Assembly: GCA_044892505.1 (NCBI GenBank)
Contig: CM097883.1
Location: 64,108,001-64,172,000, forward strand
Source: Schmidtea nova
Taxonomy: Eukaryota
Reading direction: 5' to 3'
Length of the DNA stretch: 64,000 nt
Positions 14,486 through 44,236 of this stretch are shown here, one piece after another (the stretch's first letter is position 1; each line of letters begins with the position of its first letter). The translations under genes and the position numbers were made by a program. A model generated the notes under the pieces. The model had not been told where the DNA came from and did not search any database. It worked only from the letters and a program-made list of their open reading frames with translations.

Positions 14486-14574
14486 TCTGTAATTTACAAA
14501 TTTACACTTGTTATACTATACGTTTATTGTTGTTGTCGATTTTTACACTTTATTTACGGGGTCGTTCATTCCGA

Positions 14575-15987: not shown

Positions 15988-16077
15988 TCTACAACAATAT
16001 TTACATCAATTTCCCCGTATTTTTGATTTTTTCTGGTTCTTTATTTACACGTATTTACACAGTTTTCCGCTTATTCA

Positions 16078-16551: not shown

Positions 16552-19500
16552 CTATACAACTATTACTGGTTTTCCTTCGTACAGTTCTTCGTCCTCGATC
16601 TGTACCCACATCTCTTCATGTTTTGATCGTCTTTTCAGTTCCTCTCGTACTTCTTTTGGTAGTTTTATGTTGTAGTTCGTGACCTTTACGTCTGGCCATT
16701 TTACTGCTATGGTCTTATTTCTCATGCCATATCTCCAACATACTATCATGATCGTTATCAGTGGGATACACGCTATGAATACTCCCATGCTGATTAAACC
16801 CATTATTGTTTTCCCAATGCTCCTTCTTGGAGTCTCACTTTGGTTTATCATCACGCCATATTGACCTTTCCATTCTGCTTCCCATTGTTCATATTGTTGT
16901 TGTCTCCGTCTGACTTCTTCGATCACTTTCTCTGGTTCCCATTTTTCTTGTTGATTTGGTATTGTTTCTTCCTTCTCGTTTTGTTCTCTCTTCTGACTCA
17001 ATTCTCGGAGTTCTAACTTTTTGATTCTCCTCTTTATCGGTGTGTAGTAGGTTTCGCACCTTTCTTGTGGATTTCCTTGTGTATCCACTTCTTCGATCGC
17101 ACACACTTCGTATTCTGCGTTTGTTTTCAACCTCCTCATTTCTACCTCGATTGTTTCCTTTTTGTCATTTGATGTCTTTTGACAATTTCGTGGAGACTTT
17201 CCCATACTGTTTGGCATTAATGTCCAACAGATTTCTAGGACCTTTTTATGGATCTTCCATATTATCAGAGTCGTTGATTCCGGTTCGTTTTTTGTTGACG
17301 TCCCTTCTGTTGTCTGTTGAGTTCCTTGACTGTTGGTTGTCGTGGTTCTTCTTGACTTTCTTTTCCTTTGTTGACTTCCTCCCATTTCGATCGTTCTTGT
17401 ACCGTTAATTTGCTCTGGCGTCTTGTACAGTCTGCACTCCAGGCTTCTTTGTATTACTTCTCTTATTCTTCGGATTACGCAAATTTCGTAAGCTTGTCCG
17501 ACTTCGAATCCATTTAGTTGAAACGGGATTCCTCGTTCTCTCGTTCTGCATTGCGGTAGTACGTGACTGGTCGATATTCCGATGTATTTTCTCCAACACA
17601 TCCCAATTGTTCTCCGCCCAATGTTTTTTATCTCCACTGTTACTACTTCATTCGCAATCGTTTCTTGATCTTGTTTCTTTCTTTTTGGGAACTCAATTAT
17701 CTCCTTTGCTCGGAACACTTTACACTCGCTTGTTCCTGGTCTGTTTCCGTTTGCTGCCTTTTCCATGAGACATAGTTCACATTTTTTATCTGTCTCTATT
17801 TCTGTTATTTCGATTTCTTCATTTGTCTCTGCCTCTCGACTTTCTCTTGTTTCGCTGATTCCAATTACTTCATTGTTTCGTCCCCAACATCTTCCATTCG
17901 TTGTTCGTTGGTCTTGGATATTTACTAACGTCATCACGCTGATATCTATGTCCTCCATGATTCTCTTAATGAGGATTAATATTAATGCTACACATATCAA
18001 TTCTGGTTGGAATGTTAATTTGCCTGCTGGATTTTTGGTTATTCTTTCTTTCTCTGTTCGGTTTCTGATTCCTTCTTCTGCTTCAGATTGATTCTTCCCT
18101 TTCTCTGATTCCACTTCTGTTCTTCTCGTTGTTTCTTTGCTTCTTTTCCCAATCCATTTCTGTATTTTCAGCGCTTCCGTTGCCTTATATAATTGACATG
18201 CAGTTACTTGAGGTGCTTTTGGTTCTCCTCTCTGCTTTATTGCGCATATTATGTATGACTTTTCTTTCTCCAATCCTTTGATTTGGATGACGTCTCGCTT
18301 CAAATCTGACAATATACACTTCAACGTATCATTTTTCTTCAGGTTTTCTTTCCAGCATATTCTTTCGTATACTTCATTTCCTCTGATTATCTCTAGCGTG
18401 ACGTATTGTTTCTTGGCTTCTCCTTGTCCGATGATTGTTATCAATATCGCAATACACAACATTTCTGGTCTCAAAAGTAGACTTCCTGTTCGTTTTCCAT
18501 AGTTCGCATGTTCGTCTTTTGTTCCACTGTTTTCTCGTTCTTCGGCTTCTCCTTTCTTGTCGTTTCTTGTTGGCTTTGGTTCTTCTTGTCTTTCTTTTTC
18601 ATTATCCTCCGTTCTTTTGTTGTCACTGTCTTCGTTGTTCTCTTCGTTGTTGCTTTTGTCGTCGAAATCTCTGTAACCACCCCCTGGTCCTTTCGAAATG
18701 TCGTCCTCGACATTAATTTCTTCAATCAATTTTTCATACGCTTGAACCGCGAGTGTGCTAGACTCGAATTCCCGTATTTCCATATCTTTGGATGGTTCTA
18801 TGTCTTTTAGTCTACTTTGTTTGATCGTTTCTTTGGCATTTGCCCATTCATTCACATATTTTCTGAACAAGTCTTTCCATCTTCCCGTTCGTTCGGGTTC
18901 CTTTGGATTGTTCGTGAACTTCAAATCTCTTCTCTTTAAGAATTCTTCTACTATCTCTGGCTTTTTGTGTCTTAACAACGCGCTTCTGATACACCAATTC
19001 TGATTCTGTTCTATATGGTCATTGATCTTGAATGCCGGTTCCTTGGTGATCGGGTTCACCCATGTTAGTAATGCTCTTGTTTTCTCTATGTCGTGTATCA
19101 TTACTGTCAGACTGAAATTCTTTACGTTATTCGCCAGGTATTCGATATCTTCTTGTTTCTTGATGGACTTTATGAACTTGATCATCTCAAAGTTGTTCCA
19201 CTGTATTGCGATATCTATAATGGAATTATTCTTTCCATTTTTCCCTTCGATTTTTGCTCCTGCTTCGTATAATTCACTTAGCACTTTCAGGCTCGTCTTC
19301 TTTCTTGCTGCGATTATCATGATTGTATCTCCATTATCATCAACCGTATTCATATCTGCTTCGCACTTGATCATCGCTTTCGTTATTTCTAGCGCTTCGT
19401 TTTCTTTCTTTCGACGTAATGCCCAGTGTATCGGTAATCTCCCATCCTTTGATAAAAGGGATGCTACTGGCATTTGATTCTTGATCGTTTCTATGTCACT

Positions 19501-19755
19501 CTCGTTATAATCTCCTTGTGCGTATCTGTGCACTTTCTCTGTAATCGCTCCTAGTATCTCCAACGAGTTTTTGTTCTCTTTGAATTCCGATATTCTTTCT
19601 TGCGCTTTTGCTACGATTGCGTCTAATCTCTCTTGATATTCCGCTTTTGCATTGAACAACACTGCTTTGCTTCTTATTCGCGTTTTCATCTTTTTCATCC
19701 GTTGGTCTTGATACACTGCTTGTCTGAAGAATTGTCCATATTTCAATGCTTCCAT
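16552..19755 (-). CDS. Ankyrin-repeat / 4x FN3-like / transmembrane protein (1067 aa)
   Basis: Ankyrin motifs (DGRLPIHWAL, NGDTIMIIAA), two internal signal-like segments, four CW...L...YEIC...C..Y.TP repeats and a C-terminal TM. Confidence 0.8.
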   Translation of the reverse strand: MEALKYGQFFRQAVYQDQRMKKMKTRIRSKAVLFNAKAEYQERLDAIVAKAQERISEFKENKNSLEILGAITEKVHRYAQGDYNESDIETIKNQMPVASLLSKDGRLPIHWALRRKKENEALEITKAMIKCEADMNTVDDNGDTIMIIAARKKTSLKVLSELYEAGAKIEGKNGKNNSIIDIAIQWNNFEMIKFIKSIKKQEDIEYLANNVKNFSLTVMIHDIEKTRALLTWVNPITKEPAFKINDHIEQNQNWCIRSALLRHKKPEIVEEFLKRRDLKFTNNPKEPERTGRWKDLFRKYVNEWANAKETIKQSRLKDIEPSKDMEIREFESSTLAVQAYEKLIEEINVEDDISKGPGGGYRDFDDKSNNEENNEDSDNKRTEDNEKERQEEPKPTRNDKKGEAEERENSGTKDEHANYGKRTGSLLLRPEMLCIAILITIIGQGEAKKQYVTLEIIRGNEVYERICWKENLKKNDTLKCILSDLKRDVIQIKGLEKEKSYIICAIKQRGEPKAPQVTACQLYKATEALKIQKWIGKRSKETTRRTEVESEKGKNQSEAEEGIRNRTEKERITKNPAGKLTFQPELICVALILILIKRIMEDIDISVMTLVNIQDQRTTNGRCWGRNNEVIGISETRESREAETNEEIEITEIETDKKCELCLMEKAANGNRPGTSECKVFRAKEIIEFPKRKKQDQETIANEVVTVEIKNIGRRTIGMCWRKYIGISTSHVLPQCRTRERGIPFQLNGFEVGQAYEICVIRRIREVIQRSLECRLYKTPEQINGTRTIEMGGSQQRKRKSRRTTTTNSQGTQQTTEGTSTKNEPESTTLIIWKIHKKVLEICWTLMPNSMGKSPRNCQKTSNDKKETIEVEMRRLKTNAEYEVCAIEEVDTQGNPQERCETYYTPIKRRIKKLELRELSQKREQNEKEETIPNQQEKWEPEKVIEEVRRRQQQYEQWEAEWKGQYGVMINQSETPRRSIGKTIMGLISMGVFIACIPLITIMIVCWRYGMRNKTIAVKWPDVKVTNYNIKLPKEVREELKRRSKHEEMWVQIEDEELYEGKPVIVV

Positions 19756-19764
19756 CAGCTCTTT

Positions 19765-22700
19765 TTATCGCTTGCTTATTTCTTTGTGCTGCTTTTGGAT
19801 GTCATAGAAATGTTCGAAGCTCATATCCGGATTCCATTGTTTATCACACCATTTCTTGATTAATCCGAATAGTTCTTTCTTCCTGTCTTCCAGCTTGTAT
19901 TCTCTTGGGTTCTCGCTAACCCGTAGCGTATCTCTCGCTATTAACACTGCAAGTGTTTTTGGATCGTATGTTACTTCTAATAGATGTTTCAGTAACGCAT
20001 TTTCTCCCCTTGTGAACACTTCATTACAATCTATGACCCACGAATCTCCTTCTGGTCGTTTCCACTTTAGCAATATTCTCCAGGTTTTACTGTTATTTAC
20101 TCCGATTGCTTGTTTCATGATCGATCCTCTAGTTAGTTCATCGATTTCCCACGTGGCATTTTCCGTAATATACTTCAGTATTCGGTGATTCGCTCTGTCA
20201 ATTGCATGATTCAAGAACGTTCGTCCTTCTTTATCTTTTGCCATCCAATTCGATCTGGTGTTTCCGAATAGCTTGATTATTTCATCGTTTCTTCCATGAA
20301 TTGTCATCATCATAAGTGGAGTGATTCCTTCCCAGTTCACTTTGTCAATTTCTCCTCCACCTTCGAGTATCATCTCCACGATCTCTTTCACTTTCTCGTT
20401 TCCACCGTGCTTGATTGCGTTGTGCAACGTGGTGTTGCCGTCTTTATCCTGTAGATTTAATGTCTGAGGGATCTCCTCTAGCAGCGTTCTTGTTATTGGA
20501 TGTGCTGTTCTATCCTTAGCATACTCCATTACATTCTTTCGAACTTCTGACAGTATATTGAAATCGAACCACCATTTCCATTCTGGTATGATTTCTCTGG
20601 TCCTCTTTGCCAGTTCTTTGATGTCTATTATCTCCCTTCGGTTGTCCTCTAGACTTGTTTGCGGCTTTTGTTGTACTCGCAACATATTAATTCTCGCCGT
20701 CTGTGATCTTGTCATCACCCGTTTCTCTGGTGATAGAGTTGCTGTCTTTGGTATTTTTCTGCATCGACATGCATTCACGTATATTGGTCTTACCAATGGA
20801 TTGTTCACCAATCGTACTCTCACATTATTTTGGTTAACTGTTGTTATTTCGTATGGCCCTTTGCCTGGTCGTTGGAGTTTCTTGACTGTACCGGGTATTA
20901 TCTCTGGTGTCTCAATTATCACCCAATCTCCAACTTTTAAATCATGTGCTTTCACATTCTTTTTCTGATCATGCAGATCCTTGTAACTCTCTTGATAGAA
21001 CTTGATGTTCAGTTCCGCCGTTTTCCAGATTTCTTGCATTCTTTCTTTGAACTTCGTCACGTAATCGTCAACCTCCATGTACTGTGATAATGGTGGTTGG
21101 TATTCTAAATCGATCGGTAAGTTGCAATCTCTTCCGTACATCAGTTGGAATGGACTTAGCTTTGTTGCCGCATGTATTGACATTCTGTATGCCATTAAAC
21201 ACAAGTTGATATACTCGTCCCAGTCAGTCTGATGTTTGCTGACGTAATTTGACAACATGCGTATCAATGTTCCATTGAATCTTTCTGTTTGACCGTTCGT
21301 TTGTGGATGGTATGGGGAAGTTCGTAATTTTGCAATTCGGAAGTAATTCGTAACTTCGTCTAATATTTCACTCATGAAATTTGTTCCTTGATCCGTTAGG
21401 ATTTTCTTTGGTGTTCCGTATCTGCAGCATATCTCTTCCACCAATATTCTCGCGACTGTTTTCGCTTTTTGATCTGGCATTGCGAACGCTTCTGGGAACT
21501 TTGTTAGATAGTCCGTGACTACTAAGATATATTGATTCCCCTTTAAACTTTCCGGCAATGGTCCAACCACGTCCATTGCTATCGTTGCCATCGGTTCTGC
21601 GGGTATTGGCATTGGTTTTAGTGGTGTTTTCCACTTCGTTCCGACGTTCTTTCTTGTCGCACAAGTTATGCAGTTCTTTATCCATTCTTTCACATCGTCT
21701 TCCATGGTTGGCCAAAAATACTTTTGTCTCAATCTCCCGATGGTCTTTTTCGCTGACATATGTCCGCCTAATTTTCCGTCATGATATTGAGTCATGATTT
21801 CCTTTCGCCTATTCGCAGGTAAGCACGTCAATCTCCGTTCTCCATCTTGTATCAATAACCATCCTTTTTCCATCACATATCTATGTTGATATTTCTGCAT
21901 ATGTTCGCGCAACGTTTGGTTCTTGCCGAATATTTCCCTTTCCCTTTCTTTCAGATACTTGCTGATCAATCCCAACTCCTCATCTTCGAGTTGATCTTTC
22001 CTTAATTCGCTGAAATCCAAATCTTCCGCTATTAATGCACATATTTTTAGAGCATTCAGGTTCACCAATTCTGGAAATGTAAACCTTGACATGCAATCCG
22101 CATTTGCATTTGCTTTTCCTGCTTTAAACTTTATGAACGGCGAGTATTCCTGTAACTGCATCGCCCAACGCATCAATCTACTTGATGATTCTTTATGTTG
22201 ACCTAACCATACTAGCGGTTGATGATCCGTCGTGATATATATTTCATGACCCCACAATAGGTATTTGAAATGCTTGATTGCCAATATTATCGCATAGGCT
22301 TCTCTTTCCGTGACTGAGTAATTCCTTTCATGCTTCCTGAACGTTCGACTGTAATATCCAATTACTTTTTCCTTGCCTTCTTCGTCAAATTGGCCTAGTA
22401 CTGCTCCTGCTGCGTATCCACTTGCATCTGTTGCTAACAAAAATGGCTTCTTGAAATCTGGATGGACCAGTATTGGTGCTGTAATCAGCTTATCTCGTAA
22501 TGTTTCAAATGCTGCTTGCTGTTCTGCTCCCCACACAAACGACACGTCTTGTCTTACTAATTCTTGCATTGGCTTTGATATTCCTGCATAGTCCTTGATA
22601 AACTTTCGATAATATCCACACAATCCCAAAAATTCTTGTATTTGAGTCACTGTTTTCGGTGGTGGACATTCTTTGACTTTTTCGATATTCCTTGGATCTG

Positions 22701-25700
22701 GTTCTTTTCCTTTTGCTGATACAATGTGACCTAAGAATGTCACTTTCTCTTTTGCCCAATCGCACTTTGACGGCTTTAATTTCAGTTTCCATTGCCTTAA
22801 TTTCACGAACACATTTCTGATGTCTTGCAAGTGGTCTTCAAATGTTGCGGAGTAGATCAATAGATCGTCAATATACACCATGCATTGCTTTATGCCATGT
22901 GTTACGAAATTCATGCATCTCTGGAATGATGCTGGCGCGTTTGTTAACCCAAACGGCATTTTCTTGAATTGGTACAGATCTCGTCCGATTGTAAATGCTG
23001 TCTTCTCTTTATCCTCGTCTTTCATTTTGATCTGCCAATATCCGCTCTTTAAATCCAGTGACGTGAAATAGGCTGCTCCTTGTAACGTCAACAACATTTC
23101 GTTTATGTCTGGCAGTGGGTACGTATCTCTTTTCGTAACTGCGTTCAATCGTCTGTAATCGATACAGAATCTCTGAGTTCCATCCTTCTTTTTCACCATC
23201 ACCACCGGGAATTGCCAGGGTGAGCAACTAGGTTCGATGACCTCTGCATCTAACATCTTTTGTACCTCTTCTTCTGCCACTGCTTTTTGAGCTTCTGCCA
23301 ATTTATATGGTCGTAATGCGATTGGCGTTTCGTCCGTCAACGGTATCGTGTGCAATGTTACATCACATGTTCCTAAATCTAGATCCGATGCTGCGAATAT
23401 ATCTTTATATTCCATCAACAGTTTCTGTAACTGTTCTTTTTGTCGTTCGTCTAACAACACACTGTCGATTTTCCATGGTAACTCGTCTTTGTTTTTCTCG
23501 TTCTTGTCTGGTATTTCGATCTCGGACATGGGTGTCAATTTACCCAATCTCTCATTCTCGTATATTATCTTGTCCTCTTCGTCGAAATTTACCAGATTAA
23601 TTGGTATCTCACCTTCTTGGTTTATCGTAACCAATTCTCTTGCCATTGGTAATTCCTTCTTCGCTTCGAACTTCTTACTTGGTTCGAATACCATATCTCC
23701 CTTTATTGTTGAATCGATCTTGACATAACACATCATTTCATGTCTCGCTGGCACTACTATTTGTTCTGCACTTGCCACTTTAACTTTCATTCTGCAGATT
23801 TTTCCTGTTCTGTCTTTTAGTTTCATTGCTCCTAGATCGATTACGATTTCCTTGAACAGGTCTGGCATCAGGTCAGTTCCAATAATACATGGTACACTCA
23901 GCGATGGTATTACAGCGATGTACGTGTTGATCTCTGCACCTCGATGCTTAATTTTTACAAACCATCTTCCGGCTACTTCTACCGTCTCTTGACTGCACGC
24001 GATTACATGTACATTCGTTTTCTCAATTTCTCCTTGGTTTTTCTCTGGTATATAATTGATGTCGATTGCCGAAATATTCGCGCCTGTATCGATCATAGCT
24101 TCAATTTCTCTTCCGTTTATTTCTACGGTTGTTGTTAAAATCGGTCCCATGTTTGTGGACATAACCGCTATCGTGTGCGTGTCTTCTAACGAGTTTACGC
24201 TTCCGCCTCGTTTTACTTTGCATCCTTCTGGAATTATCGGGTATATACTTGTCATCGGCATCATCTGCATCATATTCGGCTTCGCTTTGTATATTGGTTC
24301 GTTATACATTGATTGGGGTGGAGCACTGTATCTCCAATTCTCAACTGCACTCTTTTCGTTATACTGTGGAATCTGGTTTATATTCGCTTGTCCTCCTTGG
24401 TCGTCATCGTCATCATCATTACTTGAGTCATCCTGCGTTCGATATCCCCTCACTCTTTCCCATAATCCTTTCCTTTCTTTCTTTAGTTGTCGCCTTGCTT
24501 GCTCGTCTTGCATTATCTTTTTGAATTTCCTTCCGACATCTTCGTTTGTTCCTTTCATTTTTGCGAGTATCTTCAACAATCTTTTTATTCGATGTATGTC
24601 TTTTGAGTGTCCGTGTAACACCATCGTTTTCGCAAGGAATGGTAAAAACCCTACTACCATTTTCCAATTCACTTTCTTTTCTCTCTTGTAGATATCAAAA
24701 CACGCTAACATTTGCGTTATTATCACTCTGACGATTTGTATTATCAGTATAACCCCCAGTATTCCAGCCATCATTTGTCCGAATATTAGGAATCTTCCCC
24801 ACATTGCCTTCATCATATTTTCTGTGGCTTTCTTGAAATGTGCCGGTGACAACAGCAGTTCGTAATTCGGTCCTTCTCGATAATTCGTTCCTCCCGTTAT
24901 CGTTACGATATTTGACAGTAATGCTTCTCTTCTTGCCGGGAATAATATATTCTGCCTTGCTGCTTCTAAATCTTTTGGACTATAGATTCCGTTGTTTGAG
25001 ACATCTACGTCACTGAACTGTCTATCCTTTGACAACTGCATTAGCTCAAATTCTCTTGGTGCTAATACTTCGGTTCTTCCTGGGAACATTACCCATTTGC
25101 CATCTGGTTTCTGATAAAGCGGTCCGTACGCATTACTACAGTTGAATGGATTTGGTTCAAACCCTGGTGGATTGATGATTCTCGTCACCGGTTGAACGTA
25201 TCGTACTTTTCCTTTATAATCGATTTCTAATTCATTTGTACATTGTCCAGGTTTCAACTGCGTTGTTGCTGCTAGCGATGCGTGGGTCTTTTCGCAAATG
25301 TATACGTACATTGCTTCTCCTACCACTCTTCCGAAATGTCCTTCTCTCAGTGGTAATAATGGCATTGCGCTATCTGGATTCGTAATCGCTACGGCCAACT
25401 TTGTCTTCAATATTTCTCGATTCAGTATACAATCGTTATTTATCAGATCATAGTACACTTTTTGCAATGAGGCTTGACCTCTATGGAATAAGAAATCCAT
25501 TTTATTATTCACATACAAGTGTAGCTTGATATCCATTGTGTCGATCTTGGGTTTCGCATTCGGCACTTCTTGTTTCGACACGTATATTCCTGGATAGTTT
25601 GTTTCGTATACTGTTGTACTGCACTTAAGGGTTGCTTTCCCTTTTATGAATCTCATGCCCACATCCTGATTTGTGGTTATCAACACTGTTGGTGTGGTTC

Positions 25701-28700
25701 TCATCTCTATCCGTTTTTCTCTATGATCGGGTTTCAATTGTCTTTTATTCTCTAAAGCTTCCTTGAGATGTTTTGCTCTAGCCTTGTCATCATCGTCCTC
25801 TTCTTGGAACGTTTTTCCTTGAATTTCGTCGAACTTTGCTCCTTGTAGCAGTTGTAATTGACATTCGTTCCCCTTCGGTTTGTACACCAAAGTTGACATT
25901 CCCGTTTGACACATGCTTCTGTCAATTTTACACATGGATAACGTTTTCATTTCTCCTGTTGTCGGTTCGAAGAATGCTTCGTAGCTTTTCAGTTCGACTA
26001 TATACGTATCCATTACCACTAAGTTGGTTGCAGGTACTCCGAATATTGGGTAGGTTTCTCCTTGACAATATCCTTCTCCTCCCGTAATCCGTCCTGCTAC
26101 ATAATATGTCTGCTGCAACATCATTCCTGGCTTTCCTTTTATCTTGATTTTATCTCTCGTTGTCACTTCTCCATGTTTAAACAATGCTTCGCAGTCTTCT
26201 CCTTGCAACACGATTGGTTCTCTTTCGGTTCCTGGCATGACAATTGCCGAATAATGTCCTCTCCCACAATAGAATGCGAATCTCGTCTTCTGTACCTTGC
26301 ATTCATTCACCATTGTCTTTATGAGTTCTGCCTCTTGATACACGTGGTACCATTGTTCCTTTTTGATCTCTTTTAATTCTACTGGAGTTGCATCTTTGCA
26401 TTGCTCCGTACCTCTCAATGAGTACTTTTCTCCTAACTTCATTTGATCACAATCAAATACCTCAAATGTTGTTACACCTTCCGTGCTTAACAACCATACT
26501 AACATCATCATGATTATCGAGTTTAAATTCAACGTCGATCTTCCGTTTCCTTGCATCGTTTGTCTATTCTCCATTTCTCTCAATACTCCTTCAAGTTTCT
26601 TTCTCATCACGTTTGAACCCTCTTTTGTCTGGTTCTCTTTTATGAACTTTTCCCATCCTCCTTTCCTGAGGATATATGGTTCAATTTCTTTCTCGATAAT
26701 CATCGCCGTATTTTTAATATGTCTTCCCATCGGACTTGACTTCGGGCTTCCTCGGCTTAGCGTTAACAAATTGTATATCGTATACGAGATTGCTACTAGA
26801 TATTTGCTGTCCGTTTCTGCTCCGTTTAGTAGCCTTTTTACCAACGTCGTGGTTCCTTGCCAATCTAGATGATTCGATTTTGTTTTCGCCTTGATCAGTT
26901 CTGGCATAATCGGTGCTATCGCGTTGTGTAGCATCCTTGCCTTCGTACCGGGTTCGTTTATCCGCCACAGATTCTTTAATTCTGGGTCAATTATCGCTAA
27001 TACATCCATTATCGTTTTGGTGAGCCATTCTTCTCCTTGGCAGACTTGATTCTCCTCTTTTCCTCTGATTTCTGCGATTTTATCTAATTTCTTCAAGCAA
27101 ATCTCCCATTGCTCTTGTCTCCTTTCTTCTCTTGTCTTTGGAATTGCTGTTGTTGGGTCTATCTTTGGTCTTCCTCTTGGTCGTTTTTCCATTCCGGTTC
27201 CTGTTTCTACCAATCTCGATGTTCTTCCGGTTTCTTCCGTAACATCTATTCCTTCGTTTGCTCGTTGTTCTAACCATCTTTCCATTTCTTGAGTAAACTG
27301 TGGTTGTTCTTGCTCGTCCTCCGAATCGTTTACCATTTCTATGACTACCTCCTGTTCCACTCCTTGATCGTCGATTTCTGCTGGTGACGTTATTGGCATC
27401 TCTATTATTCTGTCGAAAATATTCGCCGTTGGTTTTTGAGTCAACTTCGTTAGTTCTTCTATCGCCTCATCACTATCTGTTAGTATCTCATCCACGTCAT
27501 ACGCTTCTGGTGGTGTTCTCTCTCTCGTTTTTATTGGTGTTGTCCTTGCTTGTCCCGAACTTGTTCCTGGGGTCATTGTTGACTTCATCGGACTTGGTGT
27601 ACTCATGCTTCCTTTCGCTTTCTTTTCCTCTTTAAACTTCAGTGGTTGACCCACTATTTGTGCCACTGTTAGCGTATTCATTAGATCCAATTGCACTGGT
27701 GTCAGCCAGATTTCCAAATTGTTATCCAACGATCGTCCTTGATGTTGCAGGTGGAATGGTAGTTCGTACATCAGTTTCTCTTTAACACTTTTCACTTTTT
27801 CCGTTAGCATCACCCAAAACTCTTCTTTTCTCTGATTCGGATACATTATCCTCAAATGTATCTTCTGTGGCGTTTCCTCCGCGAATTCTCTGTTTCTCCA
27901 CTTTTTTATTACATCGTCTAGTTGCTCTGGACACCACTCGTTAACTCTCTTGTATTCTACTATCGCTTTAGCTACTTTTCTCAAGTTCGTCATGTCTTCT
28001 CCATTTGTGATTATGAATTGTGCTAAGCCTTTTATTGTTTGTCTTTTTCCCCGAGTATTTCCTCTCAACAGCTCGATCAATTCACTTGTTTTCTGTTTCT
28101 CCAATTCTGCCCATATTACTGCAGTTTCTGGTCCGTCTAAGTCCGTTGGTAATATTCTCCTTGTTACCATACATATCCGTTTCGTATTCGTTTCGTATCT
28201 GTCTTCTCCTTCCGGATCTTCTTCATACACGCCTCTTTTCACTTTCCAACATTTCTCTTTGTTATCCCATTGCTTCTCTACTGGCGTCAATCGTCGTCTG
28301 TTAAGATCCAATTCTCCCAATATTGTCTCCCATTCTGGCTTCATCTGCCAGTTCCGATAGATTTCTACTATCTGTCTCAACTTGCGCATAACGTCCTCTT
28401 GTCGTTTCTTTCTCTTTCCTTCATCTTTTGTAGTTATCCTCGGCACATCATCCATTCTGATGACGTGTATTGTCTGATAATTATCCCATATGCCGATTTT
28501 GTACGCTCGTCTTTCGTCTCGTTCGTTCAGTAGATGTTCTTTGTATTTTATAGCGATGTCATCCTCGAATTCGTCTTCTCGTTCTTGTTGTAATATCGTC
28601 TCATTGATGACATCTACTATTTCTCCCACTTTACTATCTGGTATTACCTCAATTTGTCTTGTCTCTTCGTTTGGTAATCTCACGGTAATATTCAGATCTG

Positions 28701-31443
28701 ATACCTCTCCTCGTTTGAATATTTCTTTTCCCATCTTTGCGATTAGCTTATCCGTTTTGAAATTTGAATGTCTCGTTTGACTTGTATCTCGTATGTTCTC
28801 GATACACTGTTTCAAATTCTCATACTCGCTTTTCGTCAATTCCTTTCGATGTTTCTTGATTTGTTGGATGATCTGTTCTATCATCGTATTCAAATTCTCC
28901 GCCAGGATTCTTTCCTTTGCCTCTAGCAACTGAGGTTTTATTCTCATCTCATAACACATATTCGCTTCTTTGACGATCCTTTGTAAGTTCTCTTCCTTTT
29001 TGGTGTTGCATATAGATAACGTCGTTATTTCTCCTGGCCAGATGCCTGTGTCTATCATATGCGTTCCTTTTCTCACCAATCCGTTTTCCGAATATATGAA
29101 TTTGACTTTGTACGAGCTTCCCAATCTGTCCTCAACCCATCTGTAAATTCCATCCGTCATTGGGTTCCTTATCCAGATTCTCGGTGAACACTCGTTTGTC
29201 CATATTTGTATTACGTATTCGTTGAGTGGTTCTTTCAATAACTTCTCTATGAACTCTTGTATTACTCTCACTTCTCTTTCTTGTAACCACTCTTTATACT
29301 TCATCTGCCATACTGCTCGTATAAACTTTCGATATCGTTTCGTGTCGATAAACTCCTCGTTATGGATTACTTCCAACGCGTTATCCATCAGCTTCTGAAT
29401 TTCGTCTTCCTTTACTGACAATGTTTCTATTGTCTCGACTACTTCCATCTTTTTATCCTCGTTTTCCGGTTCCTTTAGCATGTCTCCTGCCAGACTGCTA
29501 ACTTCGCTGTCGTCTTCTTCATCTGACAACTCTTGTCTTGGGTGTCTCAGCATCCCAATATGCGCGGTTGGTCTCGCTTTGTTTTTGCTAACTTCTTGTA
29601 TTAGTTCATTCTCGTTTCCTGTTACTTCAGCTTTTCCCATTCTTTTCTCCAATTCATCTATTTCTTCCAACCGTCTTCGTCTTATTTTTCCCTTGAATAT
29701 TCGACTGATCCGAGTTTGATGTTTTACTGGTGGTGGGATTTTCTCCGGTTCCACCTCTCTGATGATCATCACGTTTATTTTCGTCTCTGTTACTCCCATA
29801 TCTTCCCATATATCGGTCATCTTTAACTTCACTTCTGGCAAATCCTCTGTTTGTAGGAATGCTTCTCTGGGCAGTTTCGTTATTCCCGGAATCATCTCAT
29901 TTACTTTATTGAACAGTCTTCCCACTTCTTCTTTTACATCATATTTGAATCGCCACACGTGATCATTCGGCATGATCACCAACATTCCTCTTTGTTTGAT
30001 TCTCACTTCCTCTTCTTGATTCGTTTCTTTTTCTCCTTCTTTTTCTGTTTCTGTTTCTTTTTCTACCTCTTCATCCTTTTGATTCTGCTCCGCGACTTCT
30101 ACTTCCTGATTCACTTCTTCTTGTTTCTGCTCTTCGTTTCTTTTCTCTTTAACTTCTAACTCGTCTGACTCATCCTGCTGCTTCTCTTCCATCATTGCTC
30201 GCATCATGTTGATCCTTGGATTTCCCTTCTTTAACTGTTGTAACCGTTGTTGTCTGACTTGTTCCTCTTCTCGTCGTATTCTAGCCCATTCTTGATTATG
30301 TTTCTGTTGGCTTTCTCTATTTTCTCTTTCGGCCTCAGCTTCTATTAACTGGATCATGTTTATCTTTGGTTGAGCAGCTTGTTGGCTTCCCTTTGCCATG
30401 CTTTCGATTATCTCGTGTAATCTAGACACCTCCTGTCTCAACTTAGCTTCTTTCATACTGGCTTCATTTGCACTGTTATTTGGGTTGTTCCGTTGTTGGC
30501 CTTGATTCCCATAGCTTGGTCGGTTTCCGTAATTCTGTCTATTTCCACTGTTTGACCAACTTCTCTGTTGATTACAGTCTCTTGACATGTGTCCGGTTTT
30601 TCCACATGTGTAACACGTTTTCCCATAACATCGATTCTCTGAGTGACCTTTTTGTCCACACAGTTTACAGGCTACATTCTGAAAACACTCTTGTTGCCAA
30701 TGTCCGTTTTTTCCACATGTCTGACATTGCCTATTCTGCCTGTCATTGTAACTATTTCCTCCATTCGTGTTCACCGTGATATATCCGTTATTCTTTCTCG
30801 CTGGCGGTTCTTTGAACAATCTCTGCGAATGGGGAATACTTTGATTCATGTTTCTTTTTCCTTGTTCTTCATCTTCTGTCGTTTTTCCCATTACCGCCGT
30901 AATTCTCATGTCGTTCATTTCCATATGCAATTCGAATAGGTTGGCTGCTTCCAACGCTTCATCCACTGTTTTACATCCTTTGCATCCCACTTGTGCTCTG
31001 ATGTCAGGTCTCCTGAGACCTCGTACGAATAACGCTGTCATCAATTCTTCGTCTACTGGGCTTCCTCTGTTGAACGCCAGTTTCGCCAACTTTCTTAATT
31101 CACTTGCGTACACCGCATTTGACTCATTTCTCCTTTGTTTTCTTGCTGAGAACTCATCGAATGCTTCATTCAGCACTTTGTTTATCCCAAACGTCTGTTG
31201 GAAGAACTCCTTGATCGCTTCCCACGTTCTGGGTGGATTACTTCCCGATCTCTTCTCAATATACAGATCCAATGCGCTATCTTTCAAGTATAGCGGGATT
31301 CGATTCGCTAACGTTTCTGCACTCCATCCGCATATATCCACGAATATGCCAAATTCCTTCAGGAACGTGTCCAATCTACTGGCGTCTCCATTAAATGGTT
31401 CGCCCTTGAATTTTTCTCTTAGATCCTCTCTGTGATCACTCAT
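19765..31443 (-). CDS. gag-pol: Gag-accessory-Env-Pol-ankyrin polyprotein (3892 aa)
   Basis: Single uninterrupted ORF containing all the domains listed below. Confidence 0.95.
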   Translation of the reverse strand: MSDHREDLREKFKGEPFNGDASRLDTFLKEFGIFVDICGWSAETLANRIPLYLKDSALDLYIEKRSGSNPPRTWEAIKEFFQQTFGINKVLNEAFDEFSARKQRRNESNAVYASELRKLAKLAFNRGSPVDEELMTALFVRGLRRPDIRAQVGCKGCKTVDEALEAANLFELHMEMNDMRITAVMGKTTEDEEQGKRNMNQSIPHSQRLFKEPPARKNNGYITVNTNGGNSYNDRQNRQCQTCGKNGHWQQECFQNVACKLCGQKGHSENRCYGKTCYTCGKTGHMSRDCNQQRSWSNSGNRQNYGNRPSYGNQGQQRNNPNNSANEASMKEAKLRQEVSRLHEIIESMAKGSQQAAQPKINMIQLIEAEAERENRESQQKHNQEWARIRREEEQVRQQRLQQLKKGNPRINMMRAMMEEKQQDESDELEVKEKRNEEQKQEEVNQEVEVAEQNQKDEEVEKETETEKEGEKETNQEEEVRIKQRGMLVIMPNDHVWRFKYDVKEEVGRLFNKVNEMIPGITKLPREAFLQTEDLPEVKLKMTDIWEDMGVTETKINVMIIREVEPEKIPPPVKHQTRISRIFKGKIRRRRLEEIDELEKRMGKAEVTGNENELIQEVSKNKARPTAHIGMLRHPRQELSDEEDDSEVSSLAGDMLKEPENEDKKMEVVETIETLSVKEDEIQKLMDNALEVIHNEEFIDTKRYRKFIRAVWQMKYKEWLQEREVRVIQEFIEKLLKEPLNEYVIQIWTNECSPRIWIRNPMTDGIYRWVEDRLGSSYKVKFIYSENGLVRKGTHMIDTGIWPGEITTLSICNTKKEENLQRIVKEANMCYEMRIKPQLLEAKERILAENLNTMIEQIIQQIKKHRKELTKSEYENLKQCIENIRDTSQTRHSNFKTDKLIAKMGKEIFKRGEVSDLNITVRLPNEETRQIEVIPDSKVGEIVDVINETILQQEREDEFEDDIAIKYKEHLLNERDERRAYKIGIWDNYQTIHVIRMDDVPRITTKDEGKRKKRQEDVMRKLRQIVEIYRNWQMKPEWETILGELDLNRRRLTPVEKQWDNKEKCWKVKRGVYEEDPEGEDRYETNTKRICMVTRRILPTDLDGPETAVIWAELEKQKTSELIELLRGNTRGKRQTIKGLAQFIITNGEDMTNLRKVAKAIVEYKRVNEWCPEQLDDVIKKWRNREFAEETPQKIHLRIMYPNQRKEEFWVMLTEKVKSVKEKLMYELPFHLQHQGRSLDNNLEIWLTPVQLDLMNTLTVAQIVGQPLKFKEEKKAKGSMSTPSPMKSTMTPGTSSGQARTTPIKTRERTPPEAYDVDEILTDSDEAIEELTKLTQKPTANIFDRIIEMPITSPAEIDDQGVEQEVVIEMVNDSEDEQEQPQFTQEMERWLEQRANEGIDVTEETGRTSRLVETGTGMEKRPRGRPKIDPTTAIPKTREERRQEQWEICLKKLDKIAEIRGKEENQVCQGEEWLTKTIMDVLAIIDPELKNLWRINEPGTKARMLHNAIAPIMPELIKAKTKSNHLDWQGTTTLVKRLLNGAETDSKYLVAISYTIYNLLTLSRGSPKSSPMGRHIKNTAMIIEKEIEPYILRKGGWEKFIKENQTKEGSNVMRKKLEGVLREMENRQTMQGNGRSTLNLNSIIMMMLVWLLSTEGVTTFEVFDCDQMKLGEKYSLRGTEQCKDATPVELKEIKKEQWYHVYQEAELIKTMVNECKVQKTRFAFYCGRGHYSAIVMPGTEREPIVLQGEDCEALFKHGEVTTRDKIKIKGKPGMMLQQTYYVAGRITGGEGYCQGETYPIFGVPATNLVVMDTYIVELKSYEAFFEPTTGEMKTLSMCKIDRSMCQTGMSTLVYKPKGNECQLQLLQGAKFDEIQGKTFQEEDDDDKARAKHLKEALENKRQLKPDHREKRIEMRTTPTVLITTNQDVGMRFIKGKATLKCSTTVYETNYPGIYVSKQEVPNAKPKIDTMDIKLHLYVNNKMDFLFHRGQASLQKVYYDLINNDCILNREILKTKLAVAITNPDSAMPLLPLREGHFGRVVGEAMYVYICEKTHASLAATTQLKPGQCTNELEIDYKGKVRYVQPVTRIINPPGFEPNPFNCSNAYGPLYQKPDGKWVMFPGRTEVLAPREFELMQLSKDRQFSDVDVSNNGIYSPKDLEAARQNILFPARREALLSNIVTITGGTNYREGPNYELLLSPAHFKKATENMMKAMWGRFLIFGQMMAGILGVILIIQIVRVIITQMLACFDIYKREKKVNWKMVVGFLPFLAKTMVLHGHSKDIHRIKRLLKILAKMKGTNEDVGRKFKKIMQDEQARRQLKKERKGLWERVRGYRTQDDSSNDDDDDDQGGQANINQIPQYNEKSAVENWRYSAPPQSMYNEPIYKAKPNMMQMMPMTSIYPIIPEGCKVKRGGSVNSLEDTHTIAVMSTNMGPILTTTVEINGREIEAMIDTGANISAIDINYIPEKNQGEIEKTNVHVIACSQETVEVAGRWFVKIKHRGAEINTYIAVIPSLSVPCIIGTDLMPDLFKEIVIDLGAMKLKDRTGKICRMKVKVASAEQIVVPARHEMMCYVKIDSTIKGDMVFEPSKKFEAKKELPMARELVTINQEGEIPINLVNFDEEDKIIYENERLGKLTPMSEIEIPDKNEKNKDELPWKIDSVLLDERQKEQLQKLLMEYKDIFAASDLDLGTCDVTLHTIPLTDETPIALRPYKLAEAQKAVAEEEVQKMLDAEVIEPSCSPWQFPVVMVKKKDGTQRFCIDYRRLNAVTKRDTYPLPDINEMLLTLQGAAYFTSLDLKSGYWQIKMKDEDKEKTAFTIGRDLYQFKKMPFGLTNAPASFQRCMNFVTHGIKQCMVYIDDLLIYSATFEDHLQDIRNVFVKLRQWKLKLKPSKCDWAKEKVTFLGHIVSAKGKEPDPRNIEKVKECPPPKTVTQIQEFLGLCGYYRKFIKDYAGISKPMQELVRQDVSFVWGAEQQAAFETLRDKLITAPILVHPDFKKPFLLATDASGYAAGAVLGQFDEEGKEKVIGYYSRTFRKHERNYSVTEREAYAIILAIKHFKYLLWGHEIYITTDHQPLVWLGQHKESSSRLMRWAMQLQEYSPFIKFKAGKANANADCMSRFTFPELVNLNALKICALIAEDLDFSELRKDQLEDEELGLISKYLKEREREIFGKNQTLREHMQKYQHRYVMEKGWLLIQDGERRLTCLPANRRKEIMTQYHDGKLGGHMSAKKTIGRLRQKYFWPTMEDDVKEWIKNCITCATRKNVGTKWKTPLKPMPIPAEPMATIAMDVVGPLPESLKGNQYILVVTDYLTKFPEAFAMPDQKAKTVARILVEEICCRYGTPKKILTDQGTNFMSEILDEVTNYFRIAKLRTSPYHPQTNGQTERFNGTLIRMLSNYVSKHQTDWDEYINLCLMAYRMSIHAATKLSPFQLMYGRDCNLPIDLEYQPPLSQYMEVDDYVTKFKERMQEIWKTAELNIKFYQESYKDLHDQKKNVKAHDLKVGDWVIIETPEIIPGTVKKLQRPGKGPYEITTVNQNNVRVRLVNNPLVRPIYVNACRCRKIPKTATLSPEKRVMTRSQTARINMLRVQQKPQTSLEDNRREIIDIKELAKRTREIIPEWKWWFDFNILSEVRKNVMEYAKDRTAHPITRTLLEEIPQTLNLQDKDGNTTLHNAIKHGGNEKVKEIVEMILEGGGEIDKVNWEGITPLMMMTIHGRNDEIIKLFGNTRSNWMAKDKEGRTFLNHAIDRANHRILKYITENATWEIDELTRGSIMKQAIGVNNSKTWRILLKWKRPEGDSWVIDCNEVFTRGENALLKHLLEVTYDPKTLAVLIARDTLRVSENPREYKLEDRKKELFGLIKKWCDKQWNPDMSFEHFYDIQKQHKEISKR
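20150..20470 (-). other. Ankyrin repeats fused after integrase
   Basis: DKDGNTTLHNAIKHG, NWEGITPLMMM, DKEGRTFLNHAI. Confidence 0.85.
20840..21800 (-). other. Integrase domain
   Basis: HHCC (HDGKLGGH..CITC), catalytic D,D(35)E (AMDVVGP, LTDQG, QTERFN) and GPY motif at ~20851. Confidence 0.97.
22085..22450 (-). other. RNase H domain
   Basis: TDASG, YSVTERE, TDHQPL, NANADCMSR. Confidence 0.97.
22600..23400 (-). other. Reverse transcriptase domain
   Basis: RFCIDYRRLN, LDLKSGYWQI, MPFGLTNAP and YIDD (22864-22875). Confidence 0.98.
23860..24150 (-). other. Aspartic protease domain
   Basis: AMIDTGANIS (DTG at 24082-24090) and IIGTD. Confidence 0.95.
24600..26533 (-). other. env: Chuvirus/herpes gB-like envelope glycoprotein domain
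   Basis: Signal-like IIMMMLVWLL; Cys pattern FDC..C..EC..YCG..C..G.C.G; YVNNK, VGEAMYVYIC, GIYSPKDL..ILFP motifs; furin REKR (25711-25722); TM at ~24700-24800. Confidence 0.85.
26640..27110 (-). other. Bcl-2-like domain
   Basis: BH2-like IEPYILRKGGWEKF, diverged BH1-like segment, helical spacing, followed by a hydrophobic segment. Confidence 0.7.
27163..27186 (-). other. AT-hook motif
   Basis: KRPRGRPK. Confidence 0.7.
27665..29995 (-). other. Up to four ubiquitin-like modules
   Basis: For example ITVRLPNEETRQIEVIPDSKVGEI..GIWDNYQTIHV and IHLRIMYPNQRKEEF..VKSVKEKL..QGRSLDNN, fitting the ubiquitin beta-grasp pattern. Confidence 0.5.
30574..30726 (-). other. Three CCHC zinc knuckles (nucleocapsid)
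   Basis: CQTCGKNGHWQQEC, CKLCGQKGHSENRC, CYTCGKTGHMSRDC. Confidence 0.97.
30900..31443 (-). other. gag: Gag capsid domain
   Basis: EPFNGD..FLKEF..GW..IPLYLKDSALDLY..TWEAIKEFF..RKQRRNES..YASEL..LAKLAF. Confidence 0.9.
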
Positions 31444-32320
31444 CCCGATTCCACTATCTTGGAATACTGTACTAGTTTTCTTTACTTCTAGTTCACCACT
31501 TGTTTCTGAATTCGACTCTTCTTCTTCGCTACTCTCTGTTTCGTTATCTCTTGATTCGCTTCTTGCTCTGTTTTCCCTGACTAGTTCACTGTCTATCGTC
31601 TCTACTTCGTTTTGTACTTCTAGATCTTCTGGGGTTTCTTCTTGATTCTCTTTATTACTCGAATTATCGCTGATCTCTACTTGTTTGTTCTTTTGTTGCT
31701 TAGGCTTGTTACCTGTTCTTGTCCTTTTTGCTGCTTTTCTTTCTGCTTCCGTTAAGATTGGTATTATACCTGATCTTGTTTCTCGTCCCTCAATTTTGTC
31801 TATTCCTCAACTTCCTATATTCTCAATTGATTTTCTACTCCGCTTTTGCTTTGCTTCTTCTTTGCTTTGTTTCCTTTGATTGCTCTGACTGCTAGATTGC
31901 TTTGGATTGCTTGATTGATTTGTTTCCTTAAAACAAATAATCACTTACACGATACGTCCCCGTTATCGTGTTTCTCGTCCCTCTCACGGGTGTAGTCATA
32001 ATTCATGAAGATCCCCATTTTTCCCATTTCCCTTGATTTTAAGTCTATTTAAATTATCTATGCAGTCGTATCAATTATCTATTCTTTATCAAATACACCA
32101 ATTACTTTTCCCCAGTTTCCCAATTACTTTGTCGCTCAGCGCTCTTATTATTCCCTTTACTTTTCTCAGGCTTCTCTGGCTCTGAGTTCAAATCTCCCCT
32201 TATCTGTCAACTACTCTATTTCCCAACTATTCGCTTTATCTCCTATTCGCACTACGTTTACAACTTCATTTCAATTCTCATCTCTACTCACCTTTAATTC
32301 AACTGACGTCTCTCGTTGGC

Positions 32321-32784
32321 CTGCTGGGCTTTCCAGTCAGCGCCTTTAATCTCACTTTTTATCTCGATCTTTGTTTTCTCTCAACTTCACTCATTATCTC
32401 ATTAGCCTGCTGGGTTTTCCAGTCAGCGCTTTTAATCTCACCTTTTATTTCTGCTTCATTATTCTCGACCTCTATTGTCGTTTCATTAGCCTGCTGGGTT
32501 TTTCCAGTCAGCGCTCTTATTATTCACCCTTTATCTCTTCACTGTCGACTTTTACCTGCTCTTTACTCCGATGATCATCACTTTTGACCTGCTGGGTCTT
32601 CCAGTCAGCGTCCCCAATTTCACCACTTTATTGTTACTCCCTTTTATTCTCTCGATCTTTCCTGATCGTTATCATTGACCTGCTGGGTTTTCCAGCTAGC
32701 GTCTTTACCACTTTTACCTGTCTTAACAAACCGGTTTCATTTTATTCCCATGGAATCTCATGGTCTGCTGGGTTTTCCAGTCAG
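32321..32784 (-). repeat. Array of six spaced ~20-nt bulged stem-loop motifs
   Basis: CTGACTGG-AAAAC-CCAGCAG copies (plus-strand starts 32321, 32407, 32491, 32589, 32680, 32765), 84-98 nt apart. Confidence 0.85.
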
Positions 32785-33112
32785 CACCCTTCACTTACTC
32801 ACTTTACTTTATTACTCCTATGTATGCATACTTTGACGTCGTTAGGCCACATAATCAGCTTTACTCGCATTTATCAATTCCCAGGTGCGCACCTTCAACT
32901 CTCACATTATTACCTCGGTTTCTTTCAACCCTTATTCCTCATTATTCGCTATTCATTTTCACTATTCATCATTTATCCTCATTATCATTTATTCATCTCC
33001 ATTATTGCTTGTTGATCTTCACTATCCGGATAGTTTTATACGTAATTTAGTCCTCATCTGCCTCACTTCGTCGTCTTTCTCGTGGGCTTTTACTCAATAT
33101 TTTATTTCGAAC

Positions 33113-33680
33113 GAGAACTATGCTCACTGCTGAGAACTATGCTCACTAACGAGAACTATGCTCAATGACGAGAACTATGCTCAATGACGAGAACTATGCT
33201 CAATGACGAGAACTATGCTCACTAACGAGAACTATGCTCACTGACGAGAACTATGCTCAATGACGAGAACTATGCTCACTAACGAGAACTATGCTCACTG
33301 ACGAGAACTATGCTCACTGACGAGAACTATGCTCACTGGCAAAACATGGTTGTTATGAGAGTTTTGCTTACTGATGGAAACTCTTTGCTCCGGGGATTAT
33401 GTTCCCCGATGAGAACTATGCTCACTGATGGTGACTACAGGAATTATGCTTCCTGATGAGAACTACGCTCACTACGATGACTATGTTTGTTGATGAGAAC
33501 TACGCTCACTGATGAGGACTATGTTTGCTGTTCTTGTGTTTATTACTGAGAACTCTGCTCACTACGAGAACTATGCTCACTATGATGTTGTGTTTTTATG
33601 ACGAGACCTATGCTCACTAGGATGTTATTTTTATGACGAGACCTATGCTCACTATGAGACCTATGCTCACGAACGAAAAC
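33113..33680. repeat. 19-nt tandem repeat (GAGAACTATGCTCACTGAC)
   Basis: 12 near-perfect units at 33113-33340, then degenerate units to ~33680. Confidence 0.95.
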
Positions 33681-34032
33681 TCGAAATATCATCTCTCAGT
33701 GGTTGCATGTGTTGCTTCGGGATGTTCCTCCCAGTGGTCACTTATGCTTCTTCGGAGAATCTATTGTTGCGTTTCGTTAAGTTCTATCTTTCAAGAACTA
33801 TGGGCAAATCCTTTCTCTCCAGGACCCCTTTTATCATTTCCTTTCTTTCAAGGATTTCCTTTAACCTCGAGTTTTCCATTTACTCGGTTCATCTGTTATA
33901 CCCCTTTATTCTATTATCGATTCGTCAACCTTTCTACTTGATTTTACCTTATGCGAGCTGATTACGTGCCTTTCATCATATACCACGTTTCGCTATTCAT
34001 CTTACTCATTTCATTGCTTTCTCTCTCTCTTT

Positions 34033-34061
34033 ACTGATCAGTTTATCCTCCTATTTTTATA
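34033..34061 (-). promoter_or_regulatory. Candidate internal TATA-Inr promoter
   Basis: TATAAAAA at 34061 and TCAGT ~26 nt downstream; CCAAT boxes upstream. Confidence 0.4.
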
Positions 34062-34371
34062 GTTTTTCTCTGCGCGCGCCTACACCTCATTAAGTTGTCC
34101 CTACCTTTCACCCCAACTAAAATATATAAAAAGATCGCATTGGTCCACTGATGCACGATGTGGTGATCAGTCACATCACAAGAGCTTTCCAATATCCGCG
34201 ATTGGATCCCTTTCTACACATCTCGGGTGAGTTGATCAGTTGGTTCCCCCCAATGGGTGCTTATCGGACTACTCGTAAGTAGCTCATTATTACTTAGGTC
34301 ATTTTTACCAAATCATTGTTAAACCCTCATAATTTCAATAACAACTGCACTTGTTCCAAACTTTATTTCTA

Positions 34372-34809
34372 TTACAAGTACACTGTTATTTTCTCGGATA
34401 CGGGAAGGTTGCACATAGGACATCGTTCGTTTATTTTACAGTTATTACAGAATCGAAAATGCCCACACGGCAACAACATTATCTGTATTTTGTTTATTTC
34501 ACAGATGTAACACGTCAGATACTGTCTCGTATATTCGGTTGTCGTTCTTATCCACTCATCGTGTTTTGTTGCAATCTGTTGTTCTAGCCTGTGGCACTCG
34601 ATATTCATTTCAGGGTTGTTTAATCGCTCTCTATACCACTGATATCGTGTTGTTCTATCCACTGTTATCTTATTCTCACTTATGCTCATCATCATTTCCG
34701 CTCTTTCTGTGTTGTTTGTCGGTTCGTGATATTCTACCACCTCGAGTCGTCTTAGCTTCCTCATTATTGTCTCCACTGTTTCGTTGTTTGTTTCGAAAAA
34801 CGTTTGCAT
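34372..34809 (-). CDS. IAP/MDM2-type C-terminal RING protein (145 aa)
   Basis: CYIC..IMLLPCGHFRFCNNC..CPMC..EKITVYL at the extreme C-terminus; AATAAA right after the stop. Confidence 0.85.
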   Translation of the reverse strand: MQTFFETNNETVETIMRKLRRLEVVEYHEPTNNTERAEMMMSISENKITVDRTTRYQWYRERLNNPEMNIECHRLEQQIATKHDEWIRTTTEYTRQYLTCYICEINKIQIMLLPCGHFRFCNNCKINERCPMCNLPVSEKITVYL

Positions 34810-35367
34810 TTCTTTTATTTTGTTCTCTATCCCCTGAATGAATTCTCATTAATTTTGTTATCGGTTTTTATTTATCATTTATTATTCCTATTCTATGGTA
34901 GCCCTACTGTTCGCTTTCTGTTGTTCTGTTTTGCGTCACTGCGTGTATATCCCCCCGTGTTCTTGAATGTCGCCCCGACATGATCATTGCTAGTTGTCTA
35001 CATTCATATCGTTTTCATGCATACCTTTCAACATACTTTTATATTGCGTCATGCATACCTTTTGTCACTTTTCATACTGTTACTCCACATACTATTTATC
35101 ATGCTTCATTCATCCTCTTATCTTCATTCCATTATCATTCATACTTTCATTCTCATGCATACTTTTATCCCGTTCATCAATCTCATTGTTTTACACATAT
35201 ACTTTTATTTATTATTTTTCAACCCGATTCATTTTTGCTTCAGGACCCTCAAACCCTCTGTTATTCTTTACTTTACTTTTCCTCGCTAAATTCACTTCAT
35301 CCCGGTTCATGCGCTCTAACACTGTCCGCAGATATCGAATTCATTTTTTCCCACAAAAATCGATTTA

Positions 35368-44195: not shown

Positions 44196-44236
<41 letters not shown>

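Follow-up and report, generated by a model that had tools for sequence, protein, structure and literature searches.

A Burro-like Ty3/gypsy element of Schmidtea nova with a predicted class III fusogen in frame between Gag and protease

Giant long terminal repeat (LTR) retroelements in which env lies in frame between gag and pol have been described in planarians as the Burro elements (PMC6431247, 2019). We have analyzed a stretch of 64,000 nucleotides of the Schmidtea nova genome (contig CM097883.1, positions 64,108,001 to 64,172,000; hereafter the window), which holds one complete LTR element at 9281-38633 on the minus strand (29,353 bp). All features of the element are given on that strand, with positions counted in the window. 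The Burro / GYPSM1 giant gypsy-like LTR elements and the present element are both about 30 kb long and have a single frame of ~5,000 amino acids (aa); the Burro frames are 4,873 and 5,140 aa (PMC6431247), compared with 5,076-5,091 aa in 22 of 69 scored copies of the S. nova element, the copy in the window carrying one stop. Also common to both are a Gag with three CCHC knuckles, a Bcl-2-like domain followed by env and then by the protease (PR), ankyrin repeats, and cargo of the TRAF/MATH and RING types (PMC6431247). The Burro env is reported there to match mononegavirus glycoproteins. The TRAF/MATH domains form a separate downstream open reading frame (ORF) here, but lie inside ORF1 or upstream in Burro. 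The Burro IAP cargo includes BIR, while the present element has an upstream RING ORF, and a simple BIR motif scan of 33500-38633 in this copy found none. Burro also has a Ubi2/SUMO-like domain before BCL2 and a dUTPase-like segment between PR and reverse transcriptase (RT). In the present element a ubiquitin-like profile made from the domains of relatives matches residues 1312-1362 weakly (E = 0.011), and a segment of ~95 aa between PR and RT is common to the relatives; this segment has no dUTPase match in Pfam or the PDB, and no Pfam match to ubiquitin, FN3 or dUTPase was obtained among the window fragments. By its architecture (size, Gag, BCL2-env-PR order, ankyrins and TRAF), compared by description only, the element appears to be a member of Burro. 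The Burro section of PMC6431247 makes no mention of a signal peptide, of topology, of a second membrane protein behind integrase or of env exchange.

Related elements are also found among the gB-type GAG-ENV-POL 'errantiviruses' of Platyhelminthes, Nematoda and Bryozoa (PMC13524379), which share with the present element a gB-type Env before Pol and an ectodomain between signal and transmembrane segment (TM). Six of the elements described there are from Schmidtea mediterranea, and the Env of Smed_errantivirus_5 has most motifs in common with the Env described here, as judged by eye and not computed. The LTR search in that study was limited to 14 kb, less than the size of the present element, and the terms 'polyprotein', 'in-frame', 'fused' and 'accessory' are absent from its main text. 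Nematode 'non-canonical' endogenous retroviruses, with a flipped Env/Pol order and an RNA-virus-type glycoprotein, are a further known case (Sacco et al. 2022, as cited in PMC13524379). The chuvirus-like glycoproteins and herpesvirus gB have fold and cysteine pattern in common with the present Env, but they are stand-alone proteins with an N-terminal signal, and the present Env has 15-20% identity with chuvirus G and 10-12% with gB. The nematode elements, which are from another phylum, reportedly have a continuous gag-env-pro-pol frame, and we know of no giant cargo in them. The original prediction made from this DNA presented the order as unprecedented, env normally being placed after pol; this does not hold, since the layout is already published, for Burro in PMC6431247 and for gB-type elements in PMC13524379, and has been in print since 2019.

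The envelope domain in the polyprotein frame

Our analysis indicates that the element is probably a Burro-type Ty3/gypsy element whose env gene supplies a class III fusogen in frame between Gag-Bcl2 and PR, within a likely membrane-threaded polyprotein that would be cut by host signal peptidase and by the protease of the element. The polyprotein frame (19765-31806) is stop-free over 4,013 codons, with its first Met at residue 122 (31443), and has the order Gag-insert-Bcl2-Env-PR-RT-RNase H (RH)-integrase (IN)-ankyrin. Gag (30574-31296) matches Retrotrans_gag (PF03732, E = 3e-6) and zf-CCHC (E = 2e-8), with the three knuckles at residues 361-411. The Pol part consists of a retropepsin protease with a DTG motif (23860-24132; RVP, E = 1e-8), RT, RNase H and an integrase with H2C2 and core domains (21304-23196, all matched in Pfam), and ankyrin repeats that close it (20158-20469; Ank_2, E = 4e-9). 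The span originally predicted to encode an envelope, 26533-24600, corresponds to residues ~1759-2402 of the frame, and Pfam places Monjiviricetes_fusion (PF24664) at residues ~1757-2400 with an E value of 2.9e-74. Both the frame and the Pfam domain order therefore agree with the earlier claim that Env lies between Gag and protease in one frame without a stop.

The envelope domain opens with a predicted internal signal peptide (26467-26532; h-region at residues 1763-1775), and the signal-peptidase cut is predicted after residue 1780 (26467/26466), three residues before a conserved [YF]DC motif. The putative class III (chuvirus G / herpes gB-like) fusogen ectodomain (24802-26466) contains 14 cysteines and one sequon. 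Its REKR furin-type motif (25711-25722, residues 2029-2032) sits in a low-confidence loop of the structural model (model residues ~241-280, predicted local distance difference test (pLDDT) 59-69). A membrane-proximal region (MPR) and stop-transfer TM follow (24706-24801; core at residues 2345-2363; Kyte-Doolittle hydropathy (KD) 2.55, summed Hessa 0.1), and then a conserved tail with a second, weakly hydrophobic and kinked helix (24556-24705), which is predicted to lie at the cytosolic face of the membrane.

The AlphaFold model of Env has a mean pLDDT of 87.1 and a predicted TM-score (pTM) of 0.63. Foldseek comparison of this model gave matches to chuvirus-like glycoproteins (E = 7e-39, with TM-scores of 0.5-0.6 for several) and to herpes gB (E = 3e-14, TM-score 0.34), and VIA aligned 420 residues of it with gB (Z 9.4, root mean square deviation (rmsd) 8.4), the thogotovirus and vesiculovirus glycoproteins scoring lower. 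When a profile of 123 Env sequences was compared with the PDB, 33 of the 35 matches were to herpes gB, although weakly (best E = 0.007). A single-sequence PDB search with Env gave nothing useful, and a search for homologues of near-equal length at a threshold of E = 1e-10 found none. The class III fold claimed for this domain stands, and the modelled ectodomain is gB-like across its whole length.

Directly before the Env signal lies a Bcl-2-fold domain with a GGW (BH2-like) motif (26623-27021). As a single sequence this region has no Pfam match, and a PDB search with it gave nothing useful. A small profile of the region matches Bcl-xL (E = 0.0036), and the top 29 VIA rows for its model (pLDDT 72) are all Bcl-2-fold proteins, the best with Z 9.7 and rmsd 3.8 over 122 aligned residues.

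Conservation of the order and exchange of env

Sixty-nine copies of the element were scored out of 3,792 candidates in its own genome. All 69 are 99-100% identical in Env, and env is stop-free in 68 of them. For measures of order and selection we used the 39 best non-self integrase matches, so that copies were not chosen by env. All 39 are collinear through env, one having an env deletion of 18 nt. On contig C1, up to 356 Mb, an env motif is found at the expected distance for 46 of 52 RT-motif matches and further off for two; at one of the remaining four loci env is intact, the other three are cut short ahead of env or within it, and a clean env deletion is seen at none of them. The Gag-Env-Pol order is kept in three further element families of the genome, among them two compact relative families with frames of 3,401 and 3,393 aa and an Env 37% identical. 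Among long database relatives (33-39% identical), 13 of 13 have PF24664 and protease in one protein, and 11 of these also have RT.

Some variation in architecture was also seen among these relatives. The compact relatives have four CCHC knuckles, cargo of ubiquitin-like and Bcl-2-like types, and many near-identical copies; at one locus (L124) a compact-type element adjoins a truncated copy of the family found in the window. Database relatives P0001, P0002, P0005-P0009 and P0011 have two or three protease-like domains, some of them behind integrase, and P0010 has ankyrins between Env and protease.

Ratios of nonsynonymous to synonymous differences (pN/pS) over the 39 copies, which are pairwise counts to the window copy among related copies and not independent events, were 0.011 for the signal, 0.019 for the ectodomain and 0.004 for the MPR-TM-tail, and 0.013 for PR, 0.010 for RT, 0.039 for IN and 0.115 for the Gag insert. 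When distinct changes were counted, the ectodomain had a ratio of 0.052 and RT one of 0.056. (An earlier dN/dS of 0.012 came from copies picked by env identity; it was biased and has been replaced by the integrase-selected set.) By these measures Env appears to be under constraint about as strong as RT, as a working part of a transposing lineage. A misassembled order, or an Env that is a decaying passenger, might be suspected from the in-frame stop behind the ankyrins of this copy and from the 46 of 69 scored copies with frames shorter than 5,076 aa. However, copies, subfamilies and relatives of 33-39% identity from other sources all have this order, and pN/pS is close to 0.02; order conservation and pN/pS together refute this explanation, which we consider almost certainly wrong.

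Another alternative is that RNA processing, by splicing or early termination, yields unequal amounts of Gag, Env and Pol, with the full threaded chain a minor product. Single-frame retroelements often need excess Gag, which copia achieves by splicing. No env-less copy occurs among the 39 integrase-selected copies and no clean env deletion among the C1 exceptions, but such retention in the genome is a weak argument against splicing because a spliced RNA need not be retrotransposed. With strict splice motifs, one donor-like site but no strong acceptor was detected, and contigs from four runs of one study gave no well-supported env-skipping joint among the matches listed, a result that says nothing on expression. 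We regard unequal synthesis of this kind as rather unlikely.

Exact motif counts in the genome were 264 for env and 117 for RT. Together with the ~2-fold depth over env in the contigs of the four runs, these counts hinted at an env-only derivative, which was rejected: of 16 env-only loci read, 12 are from a sister subfamily that has a pol of its own, while four are truncated, rearranged or variant copies of the window's family. The excess of env-motif matches is due to the sister subfamily. Its 12 loci have 77-79% DNA identity and the same order, and five lie in frames of more than 3,200 aa. For mature Env, comparison of the two subfamilies gives a protein identity of 97-100% and a DNA identity of 91-96%; the corresponding values for RT are 95-96% and 79-80%. 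Synonymous differences per shared codon are ~0.2 in env versus ~0.55 in RT (5 sister copies). Between-family nucleotide distances (13 and 10 copies) are 0.070 in env, 0.205 in RT and 0.290 upstream, while within-family distances among the same copies are 0.03-0.046 in all regions. Synonymous constraint as the cause of the env similarity was rejected, within-family pS being 0.16 for env and 0.15 for RT.

These comparisons suggest that mature Env was exchanged, likely once and as a block, between the two subfamilies. The likely exchanged tract (24555-26460) comprises mature Env, TM and tail, with 0-4 diagnostic sites per 100 nt inside and 10-28 outside, and reaches from the predicted signal cut to where the conserved tail ends. 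In the sister subfamily, which has a signal of its own, Ala-x-Ala (positions -3 and -1) closes the signal ahead of the shared N-terminus. The env tree keeps the subfamilies as separate clades (100/100), so the exchange would be a past event, older than both expansions. Recombination between env and pol within hosts is supposed to be ancient in PMC13524379, whereas the exchange mapped here is likely recent.

It may also be asked whether Env acts in free virions at all, or in cell-cell fusion, vesicle-bound transfer between neighbouring cells or a host service. According to a secondary account (PMC13465017), a related cargo gene, from Burro1, is put to use by the stem cells of the host. However, hundreds of dispersed copies that transpose keep Env under a constraint like that on RT, and Env was likely exchanged between subfamilies that transpose; this links Env to the spread of the element itself, and a function other than in free virions is considered unlikely.

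Signal, membrane crossings and a second membrane protein

All of 31 sequences have a hydrophobic stretch ahead of the [YF]DC with which the ectodomain begins, and in most of them the residues at -3 and -1 are small. The script used for signals took the best-scoring motif, and the positions match the Env alignment starts in separate alignments. Relatives without a recognisable Bcl-2 domain still have the Env signal, which suggests that env brought the signal with it. In sequences that do have Bcl-2, the signal is found ~35-45 residues behind GGW, the position of a Bcl-2 tail anchor. The tail was scored in 23 complete sequences, with two that were cut or shifted dropped and six without the anchor motif left unscored. 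The summed Hessa values at the end of Env range from -0.9 to 3.5 for the first segment and from 3.7 to 8.1 for the second, which fits one crossing. The internal signal segment and single stop-transfer TM of the original prediction are thus borne out by hydropathy and by conservation in the 31 sequences. Only part of its furin claim can be retained: REKR is present in this copy, but the strict RX[K/R]R pattern occurs in the loop of just 3 of the 31 sequences, two of which share the motif through exchange, and so is not a family-wide trait. This agrees with the furin site of gB-type Env being described as 'not always conserved' in PMC13524379.

The second hydrophobic helix might cross the membrane as well, in which case Pol would need an extra crossing or release. 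The helix is conserved (W-K-x-x-x-G-x-x-P-F/L pattern), even in a short relative that has no matched pol part, and is hydrophobic (KD 1.29). However, its summed Hessa of 3.7-8.1 comes with a Lys and a Pro kink, there is no third segment before PR, and with two crossings RT and IN would end up in the lumen, at odds with retrotransposition. A second crossing is improbable on this evidence, and the simplest reading remains a single crossing and hence a Pol that would be cytosolic. For this part of the chain it is therefore plausible that Gag is cytosolic, Env lumenal, and Pol cytosolic but tethered at first.

The frame of the family usually extends further than it does in the window. The in-frame stop behind the ankyrins (19765-19767) separates the window frame from a continuation of 1,070 aa (16552-19764), despite the identical LTRs. 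Three of three other long-frame copies read across the stop position, with Env, Pol and the next ORF in one frame, so the stop is not a family trait. The continuation has ankyrins, two signal-like segments (18483-18427 and 18024-17968, a duplication), four Cys-bearing repeats and a C-terminal TM (16797-16741). A signal-like segment, a variable ectodomain and a C-terminal TM are found behind integrase in 15 of 16 polyproteins, the exception having a short tail, and these ectodomains are often rich in cysteines or sequons. The four repeats of the window's family are mutually related (E = 4e-6 to 2e-4) and are likely of FN3 type by their Atlas scores (0.83-0.85), which serve as a lead only. A MIT_ATG1 match on one repeat (E = 0.0009, below the cut-off) is not believed. 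The three-part topology first proposed for the polyprotein is thus supported as to the signal and TM around Env, but the family frame usually runs to ~5,085 aa with a second predicted membrane protein at its end, and the chain would then cross the membrane more than twice.

A possible course of events can be outlined from these predictions. Gag and the cargo domains would fold in the cytosol until the signal (residues 1763-1775) starts translocation, and a cut by signal peptidase would follow after residue 1780. This cut would leave Gag-Bcl2 anchored through the signal, located where a Bcl-2 tail anchor would be. The ectodomain would fold and trimerise in the lumen of the endoplasmic reticulum (ER), where furin may nick the REKR loop, a step that would be dispensable in most relatives. 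The TM at 2345-2363 would halt transfer, so that PR-RT-IN would be cytosolic and remain tethered to Env until released by PR. In read-through copies the later signal would direct the second, variable ectodomain into the lumen, with the C-terminal TM as its anchor. Capsid, fusogen and enzymes would then start on the same membrane, from which particles could bud with Env without matrix-Env docking and enter other cells.

Several observations weigh against this interpretation. The TM-scores to gB are just 0.3-0.4, owing to domain angles in the monomer model that are not those of gB. Summed hydrophobicity is a crude measure, the internal signal lies ~1,640 residues past the first Met and would require late recognition, and the two signal-like segments after integrase in the window's family give no simple in-out pattern. 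The edges of the exchanged tract are also the limits of high similarity, where template switching is possible, and since the two coincide these edges support but do not prove the cleavage site. The topology, cleavage, 1:1:1 synthesis and infectivity are predictions made from the genome sequence. We put forward a wider view only tentatively, as somewhat less probable than its opposite: that these are enveloped flatworm retroviruses, infectious from cell to cell, in which one polyprotein passes through the ER membrane four or more times, with Gag and Pol born membrane-tethered. The surface proteins would then be two, a class III fusogen that is conserved and an attachment protein that changes fast and is host-like (here of FN3 type), and the mature fusogen would be a cassette traded between subfamilies by recombination at the signal-peptidase site. 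A literature search on the topology, the second glycoprotein and env exchange gave nothing relevant, which does not establish absence from print.

Boundaries, accessory genes and significance of the element

The element is bounded by a GAAG target-site duplication (9277-9280 and 38634-38637). Its 5' LTR (35392-38633) and 3' LTR (9281-12522) are each 3,242 bp, have TG...CA ends and are 100% identical, so the insertion is very young. A primer-binding site of 18 nt (35368-35385), 6 nt behind the 5' LTR, is complementary to the 3' end of a host tRNA-Pro; its complement matches tandem genes in the genome that ARAGORN assigns to tRNA-Pro(TGG). Paired TG...CA LTRs, a target-site duplication and a tRNA primer site are features of Ty3/gypsy (Metaviridae), as is the order PR-RT-RH-IN with an H2C2 integrase found by Pfam domain matches; on these LTR features and domain matches the element is classified as Ty3/gypsy. 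The only N stretch in the window (7152-7290) is outside the element. The tRNA-Pro genes form a long tandem array with a 308-bp period on contig C1 from 459,609,706, and the tRNA-Pro motif count genome-wide is 1,105.

Accessory ORFs are present on both sides of the polyprotein. Upstream is an ORF with an IAP-type C-terminal RING (34372-34845; zf-C3HC4_3, E = 8e-9). Downstream are a TRAF-like ORF with RING, zf-TRAF and MATH domains (14575-16005; MATH_2, E = 3e-27) and, before the 3' LTR, ORFs for a coiled-coil protein without Pfam match (13325-14515) and for a protein of 176 aa with signal-like and TM segments (12727-13257). The LTRs contain open frames of 219 aa and 194 aa, at 36539-37198 and 35780-36364 and again at 10428-11087 and 9669-10253, which have no credible Pfam match. 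Tandem repeats occur in the 5' leader at 33072-33394 and 32311-32705 (a 19-nt period and a looser array). Outside the retroelement the window has two elements with long terminal inverted repeats, at 722-3526 and 43665-55428, one of them foldback-like with subrepeats of 35-36 nt.

To the published layout this family adds a predicted cleavage site that is backed by a natural recombination edge and an Env selection that appears about as strong as that on RT. Further additions are the predicted single TM, by which Pol would stay in the cytosol, and another predicted membrane protein, located where env usually lies. If particles form, the element would be a retrovirus-like agent that couples Gag, Env and Pol as flaviviruses and alphaviruses couple their proteins, in animals that are used for the study of stem cells.

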